Shown: positions 1,814-9,348 of the stretch, in pieces
Layout: every line of letters begins with the position of its first letter
How positions within the stretch are numbered: position 1 is the first letter of the stretch
Virus record (IMG/VR): IMGVR_UViG_2711768057_000001
From: a virus
Lineage: Duplodnaviria > Heunggongvirae > Uroviricota > Caudoviricetes
Direction: 5' to 3' (one strand)
Length of the DNA stretch: 14,415 nucleotides
Made by a program: the position numbers and the translations under genes
The notes under the pieces: generated by a model
Told to the model about the DNA's origin: nothing
Databases searched by the model: none
The model's input: the letters and a program-made list of their open reading frames with translations, nothing else

Positions 1814-3712
1814 TTACTGCATATCGAGGAAGAATCTTGATGCAGGATGATATTTATAATCCCCCCAAGGCATCATTCTTTTTTCTGGATAAGTAACAAA
1901 AATCCAACGCCGAGATCGTGTTATAGCTACGAAAGCATTATTTCTTTCTTCATCTAGCTCGACTTTGCTCTTAGCTCGATAATCTGGAAAAACCCCCTCA
2001 CACATACCGATAAGGAAAACTATATCTTTTTCAAGTCCTTTCATTGTATGAACAGTACTTAACATAATCCCATTATTTAAGGTATCATCATTAAGCTGAC
2101 CCAAAGCAAGTGCATTCCTAAATGAGGATAGATTATCACCGAGGCCTTTACGTTTGAATCGTGTCCACATGGATTGAAGCTGCTCTATATCTTTAATCCC
2201 TGTGGCAATATCATCTTCTTTAGCAGAATCTTTGGTATTTGCTCCTAAATTCACCAGTTCTGATTTAATATCTAAACAGAACTTCAAAATATTAGGTGTG
2301 TCTACAGACATATGATCAATATGTGCTAAAACCAAGCTAATTAAATCTTTATCTAGGTTAGATGATTTTTTTATGTCAGCATAGACTTTGCTAATATCGT
2401 AGGTAACATCTGATTCTGGATTTAATTCTAAACCGATTAATTTATACAATCTCTTCCCATCAACCCAATCCTTTGGATTAACCTTAACCCTTATAGCAAG
2501 ATCGACTATTTTCCCAATAAGAGAAACAGGCGATTCATTTCTATCACTACGCTTTAGGAAATAAGGTATATTTCTTTTTTTAAGCTCACTTTCCATAGCT
2601 TTAAAAACAAATCTATTTCTACCTATAACAACAATTTTAGAGCAATCAATATCGCCCTCAATTTCTGGATGTCTTTTTAAATTCAGTATATGTTGAATGC
2701 TATCACAAACCCATATAGCTTCAGATTCTTCATCTGGTAAAGCATTAAAAGATTTATAGCCATCAAGAGCAGCATTAACACCAACTTGGCTATTTGGTTT
2801 TAATTTATTAGCTAATTCAATCACTGCTTTCGAAGATCTATAGTTCTCGTTTAAACAATAAATTTTAGGAGTAAAATCTTTCACGAATGATTTAATAAAA
2901 TAATCTGATGATGAACCATTAAAACCATAGATCATCTGGTCACTATCACCAACCATCATGACATCTTTTATTTTATCACCGCAGAGAACCTTTATAAATT
3001 CGTACTGAGCTCTGTTTAAGTCTTGAGCTTCATCAACAAATAAAGCAACGTATTTTTTTTGATATATTCTTGCTACTGAATCTTGATTTAATAGGATTTT
3101 ATGTGCATATAAAAGTATATCATCAAAATCCACACCACCACTTTCCAATAAAGCAGACTGATAATCTTGATAAATATTCCAAATACGCGGATTGGAACTG
3201 AATTTTATCTTTACTTCATCTTCAGTTAAAAGCTCTCTTTTAATAATAGAGAATACATTAAGATATTGACTTATAATTTTTTCACGATTGCGCTTTTCTC
3301 TAACGTCCTCAACATCTAAGTATTCATCAATATTAACCCCCTGTTCTCTTAAGGAATGTAGAAAAACCTCCATCCGATCTTGGTCACGTTCAAATATATG
3401 TAATTCTTTTGGTAACCCAATAGTATACCCATAACTTTCGAGTACCCTTTGTGCAACAGAATGAATCGTAGCAATCCAAATCCTATCACGATTTTCTGAG
3501 CCATCATCTAACCTTTCAAGCATTTCATCTGCTGCTTTATTTGTGAATGTTAAAGCAACCACACTTCCTCTAGCAGAGTTATTGAGAATGAACCTAACCC
3601 TCTCAGTAAGCACTCTTGTTTTACCAGACCCTGCAGATGCAAGAACTTGTATAGCCCCTCCCATAGGAGCTTTAACAACTTCAATTTGAGATTGTGATAA
3701 ATTATCAATCAT
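1814..3712 (-). CDS. gajB: UvrD/PcrA/Rep-like superfamily 1 helicase (632 aa), Gabija GajB-like
   Basis: SF1 helicase motifs read from the translation: I AGSGKT, Ia TFTNKAADEM, II VDEAQD, III VGDSDQMIYGF, IV NYRSS, V TVHTMKGLEKDIVF, VI VAITRSRR. Start ATG overlaps the upstream OLD-like stop (ATGA at 3709-3712). Confidence 0.8.
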   Translation of the reverse strand: MIDNLSQSQIEVVKAPMGGAIQVLASAGSGKTRVLTERVRFILNNSARGSVVALTFTNKAADEMLERLDDGSENRDRIWIATIHSVAQRVLESYGYTIGLPKELHIFERDQDRMEVFLHSLREQGVNIDEYLDVEDVREKRNREKIISQYLNVFSIIKRELLTEDEVKIKFSSNPRIWNIYQDYQSALLESGGVDFDDILLYAHKILLNQDSVARIYQKKYVALFVDEAQDLNRAQYEFIKVLCGDKIKDVMMVGDSDQMIYGFNGSSSDYFIKSFVKDFTPKIYCLNENYRSSKAVIELANKLKPNSQVGVNAALDGYKSFNALPDEESEAIWVCDSIQHILNLKRHPEIEGDIDCSKIVVIGRNRFVFKAMESELKKRNIPYFLKRSDRNESPVSLIGKIVDLAIRVKVNPKDWVDGKRLYKLIGLELNPESDVTYDISKVYADIKKSSNLDKDLISLVLAHIDHMSVDTPNILKFCLDIKSELVNLGANTKDSAKEDDIATGIKDIEQLQSMWTRFKRKGLGDNLSSFRNALALGQLNDDTLNNGIMLSTVHTMKGLEKDIVFLIGMCEGVFPDYRAKSKVELDEERNNAFVAITRSRRWIFVTYPEKRMMPWGDYKYHPASRFFLDMQ

Positions 3713-5484
3713 AGCTCAAGCCATCCCCTAACTTTATTAAATGCAATAATAACAGATTCCGGAAGTAATTCCTCAATTCTCTTTCCATTTGCATTCTGTG
3801 CTAGAATCACCCCTAAATACCCTGCATAACTAGCTTTTGAGTCACGCATTTTTTCAATTATAGCACTATCTTGTAAAGCCTCTATTTCTCTTTTCTTGGC
3901 ATCTCGATACCGTTCATTAGGACTAGCTTTGGTTTCACTTAACACTAATGATTCAATTATTTCCTCACGAATATTCAACTCGTTGTATAACTCAGCTTCA
4001 ATATCATTTGTTTCTTTGAGGAACTCTAAGGAGAAACAATCAGGATTCAATACGAGGCCATCTTCACGAACTAAACGTGCTACCTGACGGTTTATCTCAC
4101 CATGAGTATCACCATCATTATCACTAATAATACAGACAGGGATACCTAAATTACTTGCAAGTTTAATGAATGGTGGGTAATTTTTACCACTGACACTTAC
4201 ACAGTTAACTCCAACACTGAACATCGTCCTACCGAAATACAATTCAAACATGGATGGTATTAATTGTTCTTCTGTAACACCCTCACATAAAATTAAGGCT
4301 CGAGAGAAAAGCAACTCACCACGGGTTAACATTATCTCCCTTTTTAATGCATTTTTTTCATCATGTTCAATTCTTTTCTTCAGACAATTTACTGTTACTC
4401 CATCACCTTTCTTTATGAATGATCTTATATCTTCTATCTCAGCCATTGCGCTCAGGTATGGTGAATGAGTACTCAGTATAATTTGTCCCTGAGATGATGA
4501 TAACTGTTTAAACAAGGTTCTTTGTGCATTGGGATGTAGATGCGCTTCTGGCTCTTCAGCTCCAACAATTGGATGTAGCGCCTTATTTTCGAGCTCATGC
4601 CGCTCATGCATAAAGCTTAAAAACGATTGAACTGTAAGCATTGAAGCCCAACTTCTCGTCCCCGTGCCATGATATTCCATTGAAAATGAATGGTTTTCTT
4701 CATCTCCGAAATGTACTGTAAATTGCTTTGATAGATCTCGGATTTTTTTAGGGAAAGGAGTTATTTCTGTGTGGCTTGATCCTAGAAATGATTGGTTTAA
4801 CCCTTGAAGTGAATTTTTTAAGCTTTGAAGCGGCTCACTTCTACTCACTGCGGTTTCATTTATTGAACTTATCATTTCTTCAAGTGCAGTAACATCTTCA
4901 TCTTCATATTTAATATATGATAAGACCTTCCCTATATATGAGCTTTTATCTTTAAGCTCATGATGTATATCCCTCTGAGCCTCAATACAAATATAGGGGA
5001 TTGCATCAACTTTTGTTCTTACCTTTCTTCTCTCGTTGACAACAATGTCTTTCCATCCCTCAAACTCCCCCCATTCATTCAAATAATAACGTTGTGTATT
5101 AAACCCACCTTTTATCTCATCTGGCTGAACTTTTGTACGAATAGCCACAAACTCATGTCCATTTGCATCTACTGCAATATTATCACCGAAAACATCAATC
5201 CATTTTTCGTCAAACTCTTCTGTTTTATTACAATGTTCATCCGTAGGTATTATTTTTAAGTCAACGATAACTTCATTAACTTTTAATCCAGAACTATCTA
5301 TATGAAGATCTTCATCACTAAAGTAACGTTGGTAATCACCTAAAGCTAGTTGCAACGATTTTAGGAAAGATGTTTTCCCCGCATTGTTTGTACCTAACAA
5401 AACGGCAATACGTCCTAGCTCAACCTCAATTTCCTTTATACCTCTAAAACCTGAAATCCTAACAGAATTTATAAGAATTGACAT
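3709..5484 (-). CDS. gajA: OLD-family ATP-dependent nuclease (N-terminal ABC-type ATPase plus C-terminal TOPRIM; 591 aa), Gabija GajA-like
   Basis: Walker A GTNNAGKTS, Walker B-like IVGAEEPEAHLHP, H-loop STHSP, and TOPRIM motifs LILCEGVTEEQ and ISDNDGD. AGGAGG Shine-Dalgarno upstream. Paired in an operon with a UvrD-like helicase, the class 2 OLD/Gabija arrangement. Confidence 0.8.
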   Translation of the reverse strand: MSILINSVRISGFRGIKEIEVELGRIAVLLGTNNAGKTSFLKSLQLALGDYQRYFSDEDLHIDSSGLKVNEVIVDLKIIPTDEHCNKTEEFDEKWIDVFGDNIAVDANGHEFVAIRTKVQPDEIKGGFNTQRYYLNEWGEFEGWKDIVVNERRKVRTKVDAIPYICIEAQRDIHHELKDKSSYIGKVLSYIKYEDEDVTALEEMISSINETAVSRSEPLQSLKNSLQGLNQSFLGSSHTEITPFPKKIRDLSKQFTVHFGDEENHSFSMEYHGTGTRSWASMLTVQSFLSFMHERHELENKALHPIVGAEEPEAHLHPNAQRTLFKQLSSSQGQIILSTHSPYLSAMAEIEDIRSFIKKGDGVTVNCLKKRIEHDEKNALKREIMLTRGELLFSRALILCEGVTEEQLIPSMFELYFGRTMFSVGVNCVSVSGKNYPPFIKLASNLGIPVCIISDNDGDTHGEINRQVARLVREDGLVLNPDCFSLEFLKETNDIEAELYNELNIREEIIESLVLSETKASPNERYRDAKKREIEALQDSAIIEKMRDSKASYAGYLGVILAQNANGKRIEELLPESVIIAFNKVRGWLEL

Positions 5485-5601
5485 ATATTCATTCCCTCCT
5501 TGATTTTATGACATATACATTCCGAATAAATGTAATAATTCTGTTATCCAGATTATCATTTGCGGAAAATAAAATATAGTATATCCCAACCCTGCCGCGC
5601 A

Positions 5602-5620
5602 ATGCTCTCCCCGCCACGCC
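5602..5620 (-). other. cos-like 19-mer resembling the P2/P4 cohesive end
   Basis: Minus strand reads GGCGTGGCGGGGAGAGCAT, 16 of 19 matches to the P2/P4 cos sequence GGCGAGGCGGGGAAAGCAC as I recall it. It sits between psu and the cargo, as in P4-like elements. Confidence 0.5.
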
Positions 5621-5793
5621 TGCCCGCTTAAGGGGCCGCTTTTAATGCAGGTGCAAAGGTAGATTCAGGCCGCGCCGCGACTGGCGCTGGCAGGGAGTAC
5701 AGGGGTGGGAAAACGCATGCAAAACCATGCACCTTATGGATGCATGGCTTTTTTCGGGAAAAATAGCGGAATTTCCGGGGATGTTTTTGCGTG

Positions 5794-6360
5794 CTACCGT
5801 GCGGCCAGTTCTGCACGCCGGCGGGTATAAATCATGTTCTGTACAGGGGTGAATTTTTCACGATTATCATCCCGCGAAGGCGCGTCAGGCCTGTATCCGA
5901 TGGCCGTTAAAATGTCGTTATCCTGTGCAGAATAATTAATTTCATTTCCTGCGGCCAGCCAGACGGAAAGAGCTTCTCGCAGGTAATCTACTGAACGGTC
6001 AAGCGCACGGTTTTTTATCATCTCAGGCTGGTTCTTAATCCCCATCAGCTCCGGTGCCAGTGCGGCGGCCAGCTCTGCGCCGTCCTGCTGCATAAAATCA
6101 TGCAGCCGGTTACGAATGCTGATGCGCTGCACCTCTTCATGCGAGAAAATGTAGCGACCGGCGGCCTGATTAACTTCCCATTTTTTTATGTCAATCAGGT
6201 CGCGCTGCGACTGTAATCCGCGGGAACCTGATGCGTTGTCATCCAGCAATAATTCCTGATATTCCTGCACTGCGGCGGCCAGTTCGGCTTTACGGTTCAG
6301 CCACGCGGTTTTGTTCGTCTGACAGGCTTCATAGGCCTGCTGTAAGGTCAGGGTGGTCAC
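5794..6360 (-). CDS. psu: Psu-like polarity suppression / capsid decoration protein (188 aa)
   Basis: Translation MTTLTLQQAYEACQTNKTAWLNRKAELAAA...KWEVNQAAGRYI...FTPVQNMIY resembles P4 Psu as recalled. GTG start with AGGAGA Shine-Dalgarno 8 nt upstream. Confidence 0.8.
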   Translation of the reverse strand: MTTLTLQQAYEACQTNKTAWLNRKAELAAAVQEYQELLLDDNASGSRGLQSQRDLIDIKKWEVNQAAGRYIFSHEEVQRISIRNRLHDFMQQDGAELAAALAPELMGIKNQPEMIKNRALDRSVDYLREALSVWLAAGNEINYSAQDNDILTAIGYRPDAPSRDDNREKFTPVQNMIYTRRRAELAAR

Positions 6361-6376
6361 GGGTTGTCTCTCCTGA

Positions 6377-6622
6377 TTAGTGGCGGAACGGCGAGCTGTA
6401 GCAATCTTTTACCCGGCGAGGTGCTGCGGGTATTGTCGGCACCGGCGCGGGTTTCTCATCGATGACCGGAGAACGTATCACTTCAAAGATGGACTCATGC
6501 GTTTTGAATGTCGCCGAGCAGTGCACATTCTGGCACTGCAGGTAACTCTCTTTGACGCTCTCGGACATATAGCGGCTGGTGCGGACGTGAGCCGCCGTGC
6601 GGCAGAAAGGGCAGCGCATCAT
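6377..6622 (-). CDS. Ogr/Delta-family zinc-finger late transcription activator (81 aa, single domain)
   Basis: CPFC...C(x)nC zinc-finger pattern (MMRCPFCRTAAHVRTSRYMSESVKESYLQCQNVHCSATF), similar to P2 Ogr. Start overlaps the sid stop (ATGA at 6619-6622). Confidence 0.8.
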   Translation of the reverse strand: MMRCPFCRTAAHVRTSRYMSESVKESYLQCQNVHCSATFKTHESIFEVIRSPVIDEKPAPVPTIPAAPRRVKDCYSSPFRH

Positions 6623-7356
6623 GACAGTAGCCCCCGTGCTTTCAGGTCGGCTTCACGTTCCCGCATTTTTTCCTGCCAGACTTTCCGCTGAACGGGCGTG
6701 GCCGCAACGTCATGCTCCATATGCGGCAGCGTGGAGGCCGACAGCCCTGTTTTAAACAGCACCGGTTCATCGGTCAGACGGATATTGCAGCCCTTTACGG
6801 CCTGTTCAAGCCACGCTTTCACCTGCTGCATTACAACTTTTTCCGGTTCGGTATATCCCTGATGGCCTGTGGTATTGGCTAGCGGGTTATTCAGAACCAG
6901 TATGTTGAGTTTCATTGCCCTGACCAGCGCGCTACAGGTGTCACGCAGGGCAACATCAAGCTCATGCTCTGCATACTGGCTGAGGACGCTGTGATGTGCC
7001 TGACGATACGCTCTGGCCGTCCGGTCACACGCTCCTTTAAGGCTGTCCAGCTCAAAAGACAGAACCTCAGCCATATTGTCACATTCCTGCGCCAGTTCCC
7101 GCCGTGCCACGCGCGTCAGATGGCGTTGTTTCAGCTCGCCGGTAACGACAGCACCACCGGCACGAAAGGCGGCGCGCCATGCGCCGGAATCATTGTCATT
7201 TTCCTGCTCCAGTTCCTTTTTTTGTGCTTTCACCTGGCTGACGGCCGCCGTGGTTTCATCCATACGGCTGGCATTGGCGAGATGCGCCGAGCGGGCAGTC
7301 TCAAGGCGTTCCATTGCAGGTTTAAGGTAGTCGGGAATAACAGCGGTCTGAGTCAT
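6619..7356 (-). CDS. sid: Sid-like capsid size determination (external scaffold) protein, about 245 aa
   Basis: Translation MTQTAVIPDYLKPAMERLETARSAHLANASRMDETTAAV...ARGLLS resembles P4 Sid as recalled. I place the start at the internal ATG at 7356 (AGGAGA Shine-Dalgarno 6 nt upstream), not the ORF-track start at 7422. Confidence 0.8.
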   Translation of the reverse strand: MTQTAVIPDYLKPAMERLETARSAHLANASRMDETTAAVSQVKAQKKELEQENDNDSGAWRAAFRAGGAVVTGELKQRHLTRVARRELAQECDNMAEVLSFELDSLKGACDRTARAYRQAHHSVLSQYAEHELDVALRDTCSALVRAMKLNILVLNNPLANTTGHQGYTEPEKVVMQQVKAWLEQAVKGCNIRLTDEPVLFKTGLSASTLPHMEHDVAATPVQRKVWQEKMREREADLKARGLLS

Positions 7357-7428
7357 GTCAGGTCTCCTCTTCATTTCAATCTGAGGAGATTCTGCCGCGC
7401 CAGACACAACAACACGATTCATTGCCGT

Positions 7429-7446
7429 TGTGGCAAAAATGGCACA
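7429..7446. promoter_or_regulatory. TGT-N12-ACA dyad, candidate Ogr/Delta activator site of the late sid promoter
   Basis: TGTGGCAAAAATGGCACA lies about 75-90 bp upstream of the sid ATG on the minus strand; TGT-N12-ACA is the known recognition pattern of P2/P4 late promoters. Confidence 0.55.
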
Positions 7447-7533
7447 AACAGACCTTAAAACCCGGCTGGCCAGAGAAAGGTCTCAGGAAAACCTTACTCA
7501 CTGTTTGTTTTTTTACTAATAACTATTCACTAC

Positions 7534-7763: not shown

Positions 7764-7892
7764 ATAGCGAAAAGTCAATGTTTGTTTCCATGAAAATCTC
7801 ACATGACCTGAGGAAAAATATAGACATAATAAGGAGCTACCCGAAGCCGGGCGGACACGACCGGCACAGTATGGACTTTATGAGGTAGCCCG

Positions 7893-8159
7893 ATGCACAC
7901 TGCTTTTTCTTCCCCGTCTTCTGCCCCTGCCGCGCCACTGATACCGGTCTCTGATGCCGTTCAGGAGCGATTTATCCGCCTGCCTGAAGTGATGCATCTG
8001 TGCGGCCTGTCACGGTCAACCATTTACGACCTCATCAGCCGGGAAGCCTTCCCGAAACAAATCTCCCTCGGTGGAAAAAACGTGGCGTGGGCGCACTCAG
8101 AAATCATGGCATGGATGACTGACCGCATTGCCGAACGTAACCGGGGTTATGACGCATGA
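7893..8159 (+). CDS. vis: AlpA/Vis-family helix-turn-helix regulator (88 aa)
   Basis: [48 protein letters not shown] matches the AlpA-family pattern (RLPEV...G.S..TIY......FP......V.W...EI..W). Position divergent from sid corresponds to P4 vis (orf88). Confidence 0.7.
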
Positions 8160-8194
8160 TGGTGACCATTCAGCAAACAGCCCCTTTTTCTGGC

Positions 8195-8224
8195 TTGCTT
8201 CCCTTCGCCGTTTCCAGGTATAGT
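8195..8224 (+). promoter_or_regulatory. Candidate sigma70 promoter (TTGCTT, 18 nt spacer, TATAGT), P4 PLE-like early promoter
   Basis: Hexamers at 8195-8200 and 8219-8224, immediately upstream of the seqA-like element. Confidence 0.35.
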
Positions 8225-8253
8225 TTTATCGCTGTCGCAAAATCGGCAGCCGG

Positions 8254-8279
8254 GCGTAGGAACCCGTGTAATTCACAGG
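8254..8279 (+). promoter_or_regulatory. seqA-like element (GCGTAGGAAC ... ATTCACAGG), upstream target of the immunity RNA
   Basis: Direct repeat of the element at 8461-8501 and complementary to 8416-8436. Confidence 0.5.
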
Positions 8280-8286
8280 CGACAAC

Positions 8287-8309
8287 AGACGCGCCATGCG
8301 TCTTTTTTT
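8287..8309 (+). terminator. Intrinsic terminator hairpin with a T7 tract inside the early leader
   Basis: AGACGC, loop GCCAT, GCGTCT, then TTTTTTT (8303-8309). Confidence 0.55.
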
Positions 8310-8384
8310 ACGTCGTTGCTCAGGCACACCCATTTTTCGGGCTGTGGTGCTTATCCCATAGCCCCTGTCAGATAATGGTGGTCC

Positions 8385-8440
8385 GGGCGGGGCAGCCTTC
8401 GGGCTGGCCGGTATTCTGTGAAGCCGGTATTCCTACCCCC
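8385..8440 (+). ncRNA. Candidate P4 CI-like immunity RNA core (seqB plus a UUCG-tetraloop hairpin); boundaries approximate
   Basis: Hairpin CAGCC-TTCG-GGCTG at 8393-8406. The 8416-8436 segment (CTGTGAAGCCGGTATTCCTAC) is the reverse complement, in bipartite form, of GTAGGAA and TTCACAG in the seqA and seqC repeats. Confidence 0.4.
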
Positions 8441-8460
8441 GTTCGGGTCACCACCCATGA

Positions 8461-8501
8461 GCGTAGGAACTCCGGTGGTGGCAATAACCGCTATTCACAG
8501 G
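8461..8501 (+). promoter_or_regulatory. seqC-like element overlapping the ribosome-binding site of the first early ORF
   Basis: GCGTAGGAAC at 8461-8470 and ATTCACAGG at 8493-8501; the Shine-Dalgarno AGGAGG at 8499-8504 overlaps it. Confidence 0.5.
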
Positions 8502-8512
8502 AGGTTGCCCTT

Positions 8513-8707
8513 ATGGCTACGACCCTCACCCCGTCACACCCGCAGTTTGTTTTTGTGTTTGCCGCCGTTCGTCGCGCCGACCGTAAACTCCGCATCTGTA
8601 TGCTTCGTACCGTTGCCGGTGATGAACACGCCGCACGTCTTTCCCTCGTTCGCGATTACGTCCTCTCGTTTGCTGGCCGTCTGCCGGTTGCGGAGGTGCG
8701 CGCATGA
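8513..8707 (+). CDS. Small early-operon protein (64 aa), hypothetical; positionally kil-like
   Basis: Internal ATG at 8513 with AGGAGG Shine-Dalgarno 9 nt upstream. The upstream 119 codons of the ORF-track call (8156..8707) cover the structured RNA region and are not credible coding. Stop overlaps the next start (ATGA). Confidence 0.55.
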
Positions 8708-8931
8708 GACACTCCACCATTACCGCCCGAGACCTCGAATGTCTGGAGCATATGCGCAACGTCGGCCAGCTCGTCGGCGACCTGATGCAGGTGCAGGACT
8801 GCGCGACCGTTAGGCGTGACCCTGCGCAGCAGTTACAGCTCACCTCCGTGATTTACCTCATGACCGCCCAGCTAGACAGCGTGGTCGAGCGCTGCAATCA
8901 GCACTGGCTGACCGGGGAGGGTAATGTATGA
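8704..8931 (+). CDS. Small early-operon protein (75 aa), hypothetical
   Basis: GGAGGT Shine-Dalgarno 6 nt upstream; ATGA overlaps at both ends indicate translational coupling. Confidence 0.5.
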
Positions 8932-9248
8932 AAAAGCCATTACCACCCGTATTACGTGCCGCGCTGTATCGTCGCGCCGTGGCCTGTGCATGGCTAACCC
9001 TGTGCGAACGTCAGCACCGCTATCCGCAACTCACCCTCGATGCACTCGAAAGCGCCATTGCCGCCGAGCTGGAGGGCTTCTACCTGCGCCAGCATGGCGA
9101 GGAAAAAGGCCGTCAGATTGCCTGTGCACTGCTGGAAGATTTAATGGAAGCTGGGCCACTCAAGGCCGCGCCCTCACTGTCCTTTCTCGGGCTCGCGGTG
9201 ATGGATGAACTTTGCGCCCGTCATATCACCGCACCGGTACTGCACTGA
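8928..9248 (+). CDS. Small early-operon protein (106 aa), hypothetical
   Basis: GGGGAGGG Shine-Dalgarno upstream; start overlaps the previous stop (ATGA). Last gene before attR. Confidence 0.55.
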
Positions 9249-9322
9249 GGGAGAAAATAACAATGAAAATGAATGTACGGAAAAATCCTTTATATTTAAT
9301 ACATTGAGAAATTTATTCAGAC

Positions 9323-9348
9323 TCCGCCAGCTCCACCAATCATGATTG
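9323..9348. repeat. attR: imperfect direct repeat of the ssrA 3' end, right junction of the island
   Basis: CTCCGCCAGCTCCACCAATCATGATT versus attL CTCCCGCCAGCTCCACCAAATCATGATC; the two copies differ by two single-base indels and one terminal substitution. Confidence 0.7.

Follow-up and report, generated by a model that had tools for sequence, protein, structure and literature searches.

Results

Three overlapping genes in a P4-type satellite island

We analyzed a DNA stretch of 14,415 nucleotides (nt), IMG/VR virus record IMGVR_UViG_2711768057_000001 (hereafter the window), and in it a block of three small open reading frames (ORFs) that belongs to a P4-type satellite island. The ORFs follow one another on the same strand, at these positions.

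8513-8707, plus strand: ORF64 (kil), 64 amino acids (aa), read from an inner ATG of the longer frame 8156-8707
8704-8931, plus strand: ORF75 (orf75), 75 aa, from the ORF list
8928-9248, plus strand: ORF106 (orf106), 106 aa, from the ORF list

An initial annotation had described ORFs of these lengths, linked by ATGA overlaps and each with a good Shine-Dalgarno motif, and had considered them probably real. Inspection of the sequence bore out both the layout and the coordinates. Both junctions are 4-nt stop/start overlaps (gcgcATGAgac between kil and orf75, gtATGAaaa between orf75 and orf106), a geometry that fits translational coupling. The Shine-Dalgarno motifs of kil, orf75 and orf106 are cAGGAGGttgcccttATG, gcGGAGGtgcgcgcATG and gGGGAGGGtaatgtATG, with AGGAGG, GGAGG and GGGGAGGG at the usual distance before the respective starts.

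Conservation was assessed in two sets of relatives: 57 related loci from one-genome-per-species contigs, retrieved with ORF106 as the probe and representing many Enterobacterales genera as well as P4, and 80 further loci from IMG/VR, retrieved with an ORF75 alignment as the query. Among the 57 loci, kil and orf75 are adjacent in 43 and overlap by 4 nt in 41 of these, and orf75 and orf106 overlap by 4 nt in 51 of 53; all 80 IMG/VR loci have the identical junction geometry. Such retention of the 4-nt overlaps goes far beyond chance. The ratio of nonsynonymous to synonymous substitution rates (dN/dS), calculated by pairwise Nei-Gojobori comparison of about 50 related loci (median dS, 0.57 to 0.78), was 0.17 for ORF64, 0.26 for ORF75 and 0.095 for ORF106, values that describe purifying selection across the family rather than inside the lineage devoid of alpha presented below.

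Long alternative ORFs occur on both strands of this GC-rich region. In 31 colinear relatives, the competing frame 8418-8813 on the plus strand is open in 2, 8526-8843 on the minus strand in 18, and 8924-9208 on the plus strand in 17. A search of Rfam found no family within 8513-9248. The low dN/dS values, together with the failure of the alternative frames to stay open, indicate that the three ORFs are genes. The synonymous-biased substitution pattern that the initial annotation had proposed to look for in homologous islands is present, and the three genes form the standard early-operon block of P4-type satellites.

ORF64 is a Kil homologue nested in the eta frame

The likeness of the first ORF to P4 kil, initially proposed from position, extends to homology. 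By BLASTP, ORF64 is 85.5% identical to P4 Kil, i.e., to the last 65 codons of the P4 'cI/ash 137 aa' frame. Residues 12-59 match the NCBIfam model NF033153 (Icd-like host cell division inhibitor) at 77.2 bits against a cutoff of 25 (E = 7.2e-22); P4 Kil reaches 76.1 bits and P1 Icd 52.6 bits with the same model. ORF64 Kil and P1 Icd share 28% identity in a MAFFT alignment, and tblastn found the Icd genes of N15, PY54 and phiKO2 at 41 to 47% identity to ORF64. Kil is a 64-aa protein with an isoelectric point of 11.2 and would be the first gene translated from the transcript of the PLE promoter. Its coding DNA is C-rich and G-poor, with a C/G ratio of 1.3 to 1.8 in 60-nt windows. In P4, a Rho-dependent terminator lies within kil.

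The ATG of kil is internal to a longer frame.

8156-8707, plus strand: eta-type long frame of 183 aa that ends as Kil, spans both RNA genes described below and is colinear with the P4 frame ending in Kil

This nested frame, like the absence of the P4 genes epsilon, orf151 and alpha, had been overlooked in the initial annotation. The eta ATG overlaps the stop codon of the preceding gene vis (gcATGAtgg), and eta residues 22-131 match Pfam Phage_ASH (3.9e-30). Of 46 distinct relatives, 43 have no stop codon in this frame, whereas both remaining forward frames are interrupted in all 46. The N-terminal part nevertheless has a dN/dS of 0.87, i.e., near-neutral drift of the amino acids. An open frame with drifting amino acids fits translation itself being what matters. 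Family-wide, the N-terminal part of eta is conserved as an open frame and as the RNA genes that it crosses, not as a protein sequence. In P4, translation of Eta prevents termination, hence the late promoter reads through, and Kil is a truncated form of Eta acting in cell killing (Forti et al. 1999, paraphrased in PMC10111431). P1 Icd is annotated in the P1 record as blocking cell division or killing. By analogy, a toxic function for ORF64 Kil may fairly be inferred.

An immunity RNA with two antisense modules precedes kil

Upstream of kil, the following elements were identified.

8195-8224, plus strand: candidate PLE-like constitutive promoter, TTGCTT-18 nt-TATAGT, inside eta, read from the sequence
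8231-8308, plus strand: isrK-type leader element, equivalent of the P4 seqA region (Rfam RF01394, 74.6 bits against a gathering score of 50)
8371-8458, plus strand: C4/CI-type immunity RNA (Rfam RF01695, 81.3 bits against a gathering score of 45)
8463-8504, plus strand: downstream target, equivalent of P4 seqC and P1 a2/b2, recognized by complementarity, covariation and P1-like order and spacing

The two Rfam models, isrK and C4, detect relatives of seqA and CI (PMC10111431). The loop of the C4 RNA carries two 7-nt antisense modules, b' (CTGTGAA, 8416-8422) and a' (TTCCTAC, 8430-8436). Exact 7-nt complements of both are found upstream, inside the isrK element (a1, 8256-8262; b1, 8272-8278), and again downstream (a2, 8463-8469; b2, 8494-8500). 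The b2 site continues, 13 nt before the ATG at 8513, into the kil Shine-Dalgarno sequence AGGAGG at 8499-8504 (ttCACAGGAGG), so that occlusion of the kil ribosome-binding site would be the entry point of the regulation.

Among 46 distinct leaders, a' occurs in 5 variants and b' in 8, in 18 combinations. Both modules match both of their sites in all 46 leaders (including 4 G-U wobbles and 6 alignment shifts of 1 nt), and only 4.2% of the pairings between a module of one locus and a site of another match. The two modules vary independently and each covaries three ways, and this constitutes a combinatorial immunity code among P4-like satellites. The initial annotation had placed the three ORFs directly under the control of the immunity RNA; their position downstream of the C4/CI RNA, the contact between b2 and the kil Shine-Dalgarno sequence and the covariation support control of kil-orf75-orf106 by this RNA.

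The hexamers of the candidate promoter are kept in relatives, and its predicted start near 8231 coincides with the start of the isrK match; these sequence features make it our candidate for PLE, the constitutive promoter. At the end of the isrK-like element, an intrinsic-terminator-like hairpin (8287-8303) and the run of T residues behind it (T7) are highly conserved. A short RNA with a1 and b1 could arise from this element and could serve as a decoy or an activator, like the Gifsy-1 IsrK small RNA.

ORF106 corresponds to P4 ORF106

P4 Cnr is a negative regulator of alpha-dependent replication that binds alpha and holds the copy number in the plasmid state. ORF106 is 91.5% identical to P4 ORF106 (BLASTP) and matches Pfam PF17345 (DUF5375) over its full length (positions 1-106 of 106; 4.4e-65; 216.7 bits against a cutoff of 30). 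The 11.7-kDa protein is modeled by AlphaFold2 as a four-helix bundle with a predicted local distance difference test score (pLDDT) of 87.5. On the genetic map of P4, orf106 is cnr (Terzano et al. 1994; Ziegelin et al. 1997; Briani et al. 2001). The cnr gene controls plasmid copy number, and the family that contains it is found in 90% of P4-like elements (PMC8628076). One source names an ORF106 homologue 'DNA replication protein'.

For annotation, ORF64 can accordingly be named kil, nested in eta, and ORF106 an orf106/cnr homologue. Of the initial statement that the three proteins have no recognizable domains, only the part on ORF75 holds, which has no match in Pfam, NCBIfam or PADLOC; ORF64 and ORF106 are covered by NF033153 and DUF5375. 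The three were also said to be the only uncharacterized proteins of the island. This does not stand for ORF64 and ORF106, which are near-identical to named P4 genes, and leaves ORF75, whose family has itself been reported (PMC8628076).

ORF75 belongs to a widespread satellite family

By sequence, ORF75 is a member of a 75-aa family described in PMC8628076 as of unknown function, absent from P4 and present in 61% of P4-like elements. It shares with that family its length and its position between the Ash/eta gene and alpha, beside cnr, and we found no differences. The members have lengths of 72 to 86 aa, a full-length profile match and a location directly upstream of cnr, and ORF75 conforms to all three. 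It also matches phrog_10110 over its full length (1.9e-45; positions 1-75 of 75). Its homologues, from Salmonella, Klebsiella, Enterobacter, Citrobacter, Hafnia, Tatumella and others, fall into 305 clusters at 90% identity, all labeled 'hypothetical'. A profile search against 1.84 billion representatives returned only 26 proteins of 27 to 119 aa, which belong to the same family and include no informative fusion. The most distant relative (E = 3.6e-5) lies between Ash/Kil and DUF5375 genes with 4-nt overlaps and is followed by alpha.

ORF75 is small and acidic (isoelectric point, 5.4); in its AlphaFold2 model (pLDDT, 82.8), helices 8-31 and 40-70 form a hairpin. Sequence comparison with PDB gave nothing below E = 0.5, and a Foldseek search of the model against BFVD and PDB recovered generic helical hairpins only (best E, 0.45). 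None of the three ORFs matched a PADLOC model at E <= 0.01; the neighboring GajA and GajB match strongly.

We considered whether ORF75 might be a diverged form of P4 epsilon. It has no match to PF25738 (derepression protein), gives no BLASTP alignment with epsilon and scores a probability of 0.5% in hhalign, and P4 epsilon itself scores 9e-51 on PF25738. Descent from orf151, kil, cnr or vis was likewise rejected, with hhalign probabilities of at most 0.6% throughout. A Cys/His metal site (C13, H16, C33, C64) was dropped as well, as the distant homologue of locus L062 is devoid of C13 and C33.

The orf75 gene accompanies cnr, and alpha has been deleted

The order vis-eta-kil-orf75-cnr-alpha was found in 35 + 7 loci, the 7 having in addition epsilon and orf151 inserted between kil and orf75, and all 80 IMG/VR loci have the same order. 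The commonest architecture is that of the window, with kil, orf75 and cnr. P4, three P4-identical contigs from metagenome-assembled genomes (MAGs) and locus L058 have epsilon and orf151 and no orf75. No locus of the sample with an intact kil-to-cnr interval is devoid of both epsilon and orf75. Since orf75 remains attached to cnr in the epsilon-bearing loci, it is an extra gene and not a positional replacement of epsilon. Identity among relatives is 57 to 99% for ORF75 and 54 to 70% for epsilon homologues, and the conservation of orf75 is similar to that of cnr and alpha.

P4 holds no remnant of orf75: roughly the initial 80 nt downstream of orf151 match the spacer that other elements have between orf151 and orf75, and then orf75 is cleanly absent. 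At the orf75 position, P4 (locus L001, 7305-7439, minus strand) has a 135-nt spacer that ends in a 21-codon mini-ORF, MPYQLMQPARNAVICHREKSK. The mini-ORF ends in ATGA on the orf106 start and may thereby keep a restart of translation available to cnr; no P4-type mini-ORF is present in L058, the other element devoid of orf75. The contigs L028-L031 are 98 to 100% identical to P4 at the protein level and come from MAGs labeled Dysgonomonas, Clostridiales and Ferruginibacter, probably through contamination or mis-binning.

Downstream of orf106, one further feature was found.

9265-9279, plus strand: remnant of the alpha primase-helicase gene, codons 1-5 (MKMNV; ATGAAAATGAATGTA, as in P4), from alignment with the P4 alpha start

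Beyond these five codons, the window contains no match to alpha. In all 57 related loci, alpha starts 8 to 20 nt after orf106. Here, ORF106 no longer stands directly upstream of alpha, which was lost by deletion, ORF106 itself being orthologous. The crr gene is also deleted. About 45 nt of AT-rich sequence separate the alpha remnant from the right attachment site attR, and the island ends 75 nt after orf106. Judged from its gene content, the island cannot replicate. The loss of alpha leaves orf75 and orf106 orphaned, with their presumed target missing in cis.

In a survey of 5,426 complete E. coli genomes, 83 carry the kil-orf75-orf106 block, and about 79 of them keep alpha after it. The alpha-less junction occurs only in KSC9, ZH48, ZH49 and Res13-Lact-PEB08-01, which are all pig isolates with 99.9 to 100% identity, and this confinement to four porcine isolates indicates that the deletion is recent. 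In Res13-Lact-PEB08-01, ISCro1, an IS66-family insertion sequence, is inserted right beside the breakpoint of the alpha deletion. These observations on the deletion concern 9249-9338 of the window and 4750-7450 of locus L063.

Layout of the island

The window is 100% identical to the chromosome of the porcine E. coli isolate KSC9. The island, of roughly 9 kb, is integrated at the transfer-messenger RNA (tmRNA) gene ssrA (Rfam tmRNA, 40-402), and the chromosomal ypjA flank starts at about 9316. Its remaining features are as follows.

586-1776: P4-type integrase (int)
1814-3712, minus strand: GajB, 632 aa (PADLOC, 2.8e-272)
3709-5484, minus strand: GajA, 591 aa (PADLOC, 1.4e-245)
minus strand: psu, delta and sid (Pfam Psu, 9.8e-87; Ogr_Delta, 5.7e-21)
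7893-8159, plus strand: vis/alpA-type excisionase-regulator, 88 aa (Pfam Phage_AlpA, 1.5e-20; 69% identity to P4 ORF88)
9324-9338, plus strand: attR, a 15-nt copy of the ssrA 3' end that forms the right end of the island (exact repeat of 388-402)

GajB and GajA overlap by 4 nt and form a complete Gabija pair in the usual defense hotspot, the interval between integrase and psu. The rightward operon with kil-orf75-orf106 comes after psu, delta and sid in the left-to-right order of the island. It is preceded by vis, the first gene of the late-promoter transcript, which has a dN/dS of 0.12 and whose stop codon overlaps the eta start as ATGA. P4 epsilon and orf151 are absent from the island, as they are from most relatives. 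DNA identity to P4 is 76% over 82% of positions 7800-9300. The delta gene (6377-6622, minus strand) codes for 81 aa with one Ogr/Delta zinc finger, and P4 delta has 166 aa.

Comparison with P4, P1 and Gifsy-1

Gene order and orientation are those of the P4 left operon (vis/orf88, eta-kil, cI RNA, epsilon, orf151, orf106/cnr, alpha). The likeness comprises vis, an eta frame that contains the seqA-like and CI RNAs and ends in kil, and then orf106, whereas the island is devoid of epsilon, orf151, alpha and crr and has a 75-aa gene that P4 lacks. The immI region of P1 (a1-b1, c4 RNA, a2-b2, icd, ant1/2) contains an RNA of the same Rfam C4 family that also has two antisense modules, and its two pairs of target sites agree with ours in order and nearly in spacing (curated P1 record). 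There too, an Icd-family ORF starts right after the second downstream site, and its stop codon overlaps the next start by 4 nt. In contrast with P1, in which the coupled gene encodes the anti-repressor Ant, the coupled gene is here orf75, and the leader is located inside a long translated eta frame.

The isrK-orf45-anrP module of Gifsy-1 in Salmonella (PMC4825925) resembles the locus in its Rfam isrK match with a terminator-like hairpin, in a downstream ORF that runs over the processed C4-like RNA with conserved nucleotides and drifting amino acids, and in AUGA coupling. It differs in its output, the AnrP anti-repressor, and in the trans-acting role of the short IsrK RNA, which activates translation; no such activity is known for P4-type elements.

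Discussion

A P4-like model for expression of the block

We consider it very likely, from sequence comparison, that the three ORFs represent the protein genes closest to the promoter in the left (early/replication) operon of a P4-type satellite, with regulation as in P4 and P1. The mechanism was established in those two elements and is transferred here by homology and covariation. A constitutive promoter inside eta would produce a leader transcript from which the C4/CI RNA would be cut. The two modules of its loop would pair with the site just upstream of kil, half of which runs into the kil Shine-Dalgarno sequence, and translation of kil would be blocked. The untranslated, C-rich kil RNA would then be subject to Rho-dependent termination, so that in the immune state orf75 and orf106 would not be expressed. 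Firing of the late promoter upstream of vis would lead to translation of vis and then, by ATGA coupling, of the whole eta frame, through the RNA genes and kil. This translation would keep Rho off, and orf75 and orf106 would be expressed through ATGA restarts. Kil, a small basic protein of the Icd family, would kill or block division if overproduced, and Orf106 would be the Cnr that in P4 restrains alpha-dependent replication.

Several points weigh against this model. The evidence for this island is computational. The candidate promoter inside eta falls under the threshold of a consensus scan, and Rho termination inside kil is consistent with the P4 precedent and with the C-rich, G-poor composition, from which it is solely derived. 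P1 Icd and ORF64 Kil give no pairwise BLASTP alignment and are linked by the NF033153 profile only. The equation of ORF106 with cnr draws on Terzano et al. 1994 and the P4 map, and UniProt, RefSeq and Pfam label the P4 gene 'Uncharacterized protein ORF106' or DUF5375. Finally, P4 replicates and controls its copy number without orf75.

Alternative explanations

The block might be a decaying remnant that has no present function, its genes being intact merely because the deletion is recent. The reduction of alpha to five codons, with the island ending 75 nt after orf106, is in keeping with this, as is the restriction of the alpha-less junction to four near-identical porcine isolates, and the purifying selection that we measured was seen across the family, not within their lineage. 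On the other hand, the ORFs, their Shine-Dalgarno motifs, the RNA modules and the targets are all intact in the window, and so are int, vis, psu, delta, sid and the complete Gabija pair. Moreover, the toxicity of Kil still calls for repression, so the CI-kil part must stay functional. We regard present decay of the block as possible but doubtful.

Within the P4-like model, the role of ORF75 is the least settled part. The protein is most likely a protein-binding accessory. Since the orf75-cnr ATGA junction is the invariant unit, our preferred guess, held only tentatively, is a joint action of Orf75 and Cnr on alpha.

Alternatively, Orf75 could be a helper-directed anti-repressor, standing in for P4 epsilon in those P4-like satellites, the majority, that have no epsilon gene. 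The icd-like ORF of every characterized C4-type module is coupled to an anti-repressor gene, through the 4-nt overlap of P1 icd-ant, the AUGA of Gifsy-1 orf45-anrP (PMC4825925) and the 8-nt overlap of P4 kil-epsilon, and orf75 holds this position in most P4-like elements. All epsilon-less loci carry orf75 (45 of 45 genome loci, 80 of 80 viral loci), and the only elements devoid of orf75, the P4 lineage and L058, both carry epsilon; the small size, acidity and helical fold of Orf75 would also suit such a role. However, this presence-absence pattern rests on just two independent lineages devoid of orf75, and Orf75 has no similarity to epsilon by the three comparisons reported above. Furthermore, 7 or 8 elements carry both genes, with orf75 staying by cnr rather than kil, and Orf75 is better conserved than the epsilon homologues, which is unexpected for a tracker of diverse helper repressors. 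We therefore judge a helper-directed anti-repressor to be unlikely. The same low probability attaches to the broader proposal that Orf75 is a minimal anti-repressor or takeover factor released by coupling to an Icd-like gene under a C4-type RNA or, in a variant, a new Cnr partner tuning alpha. The probability beyond the Cnr-partner and helper-directed readings goes to some other role.

That the ORFs are not protein genes, their conservation reflecting RNA structure or overlapping genes on the opposite strand, is highly improbable: although the region is GC-rich with long alternative ORFs on both strands and conservation of the upstream eta frame is mainly at the RNA level (dN/dS of 0.87), the three frames have a dN/dS of 0.095 to 0.26 at a dS of 0.6 to 0.8, the alternatives are open in just 2, 18 and 17 of 31 relatives, no Rfam family lies in 8513-9248, and the folds predicted for ORF75 and ORF106 are confident (pLDDT of 82.8 and 87.5).

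Significance and related observations

Taken as a P4-type early block, the locus holds mostly known biology and is nothing unusual in a P4-like island; only ORF75 retains some interest. This gene, found in 61% of P4-like elements (PMC8628076) and under clear purifying selection, is among the most widespread satellite genes of the Enterobacterales, and since it happens to be missing from P4, the model satellite, it has been left without an assigned function. The island further illustrates that satellites that carry defense genes, here Gabija, can persist after the loss of replication.

The Pfam family PF10554 (Phage_ASH) models the eta frame over the isrK-like and C4 RNA genes (8156-8512 in the window), and the Ash family may be understood as the translated sequence of a region of RNA genes. 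PF10554 was used as the 'epsilon' marker in PMC8628076. Since P4 epsilon itself belongs to PF25738, the 'epsilon' counts of that survey probably refer to eta/ash.

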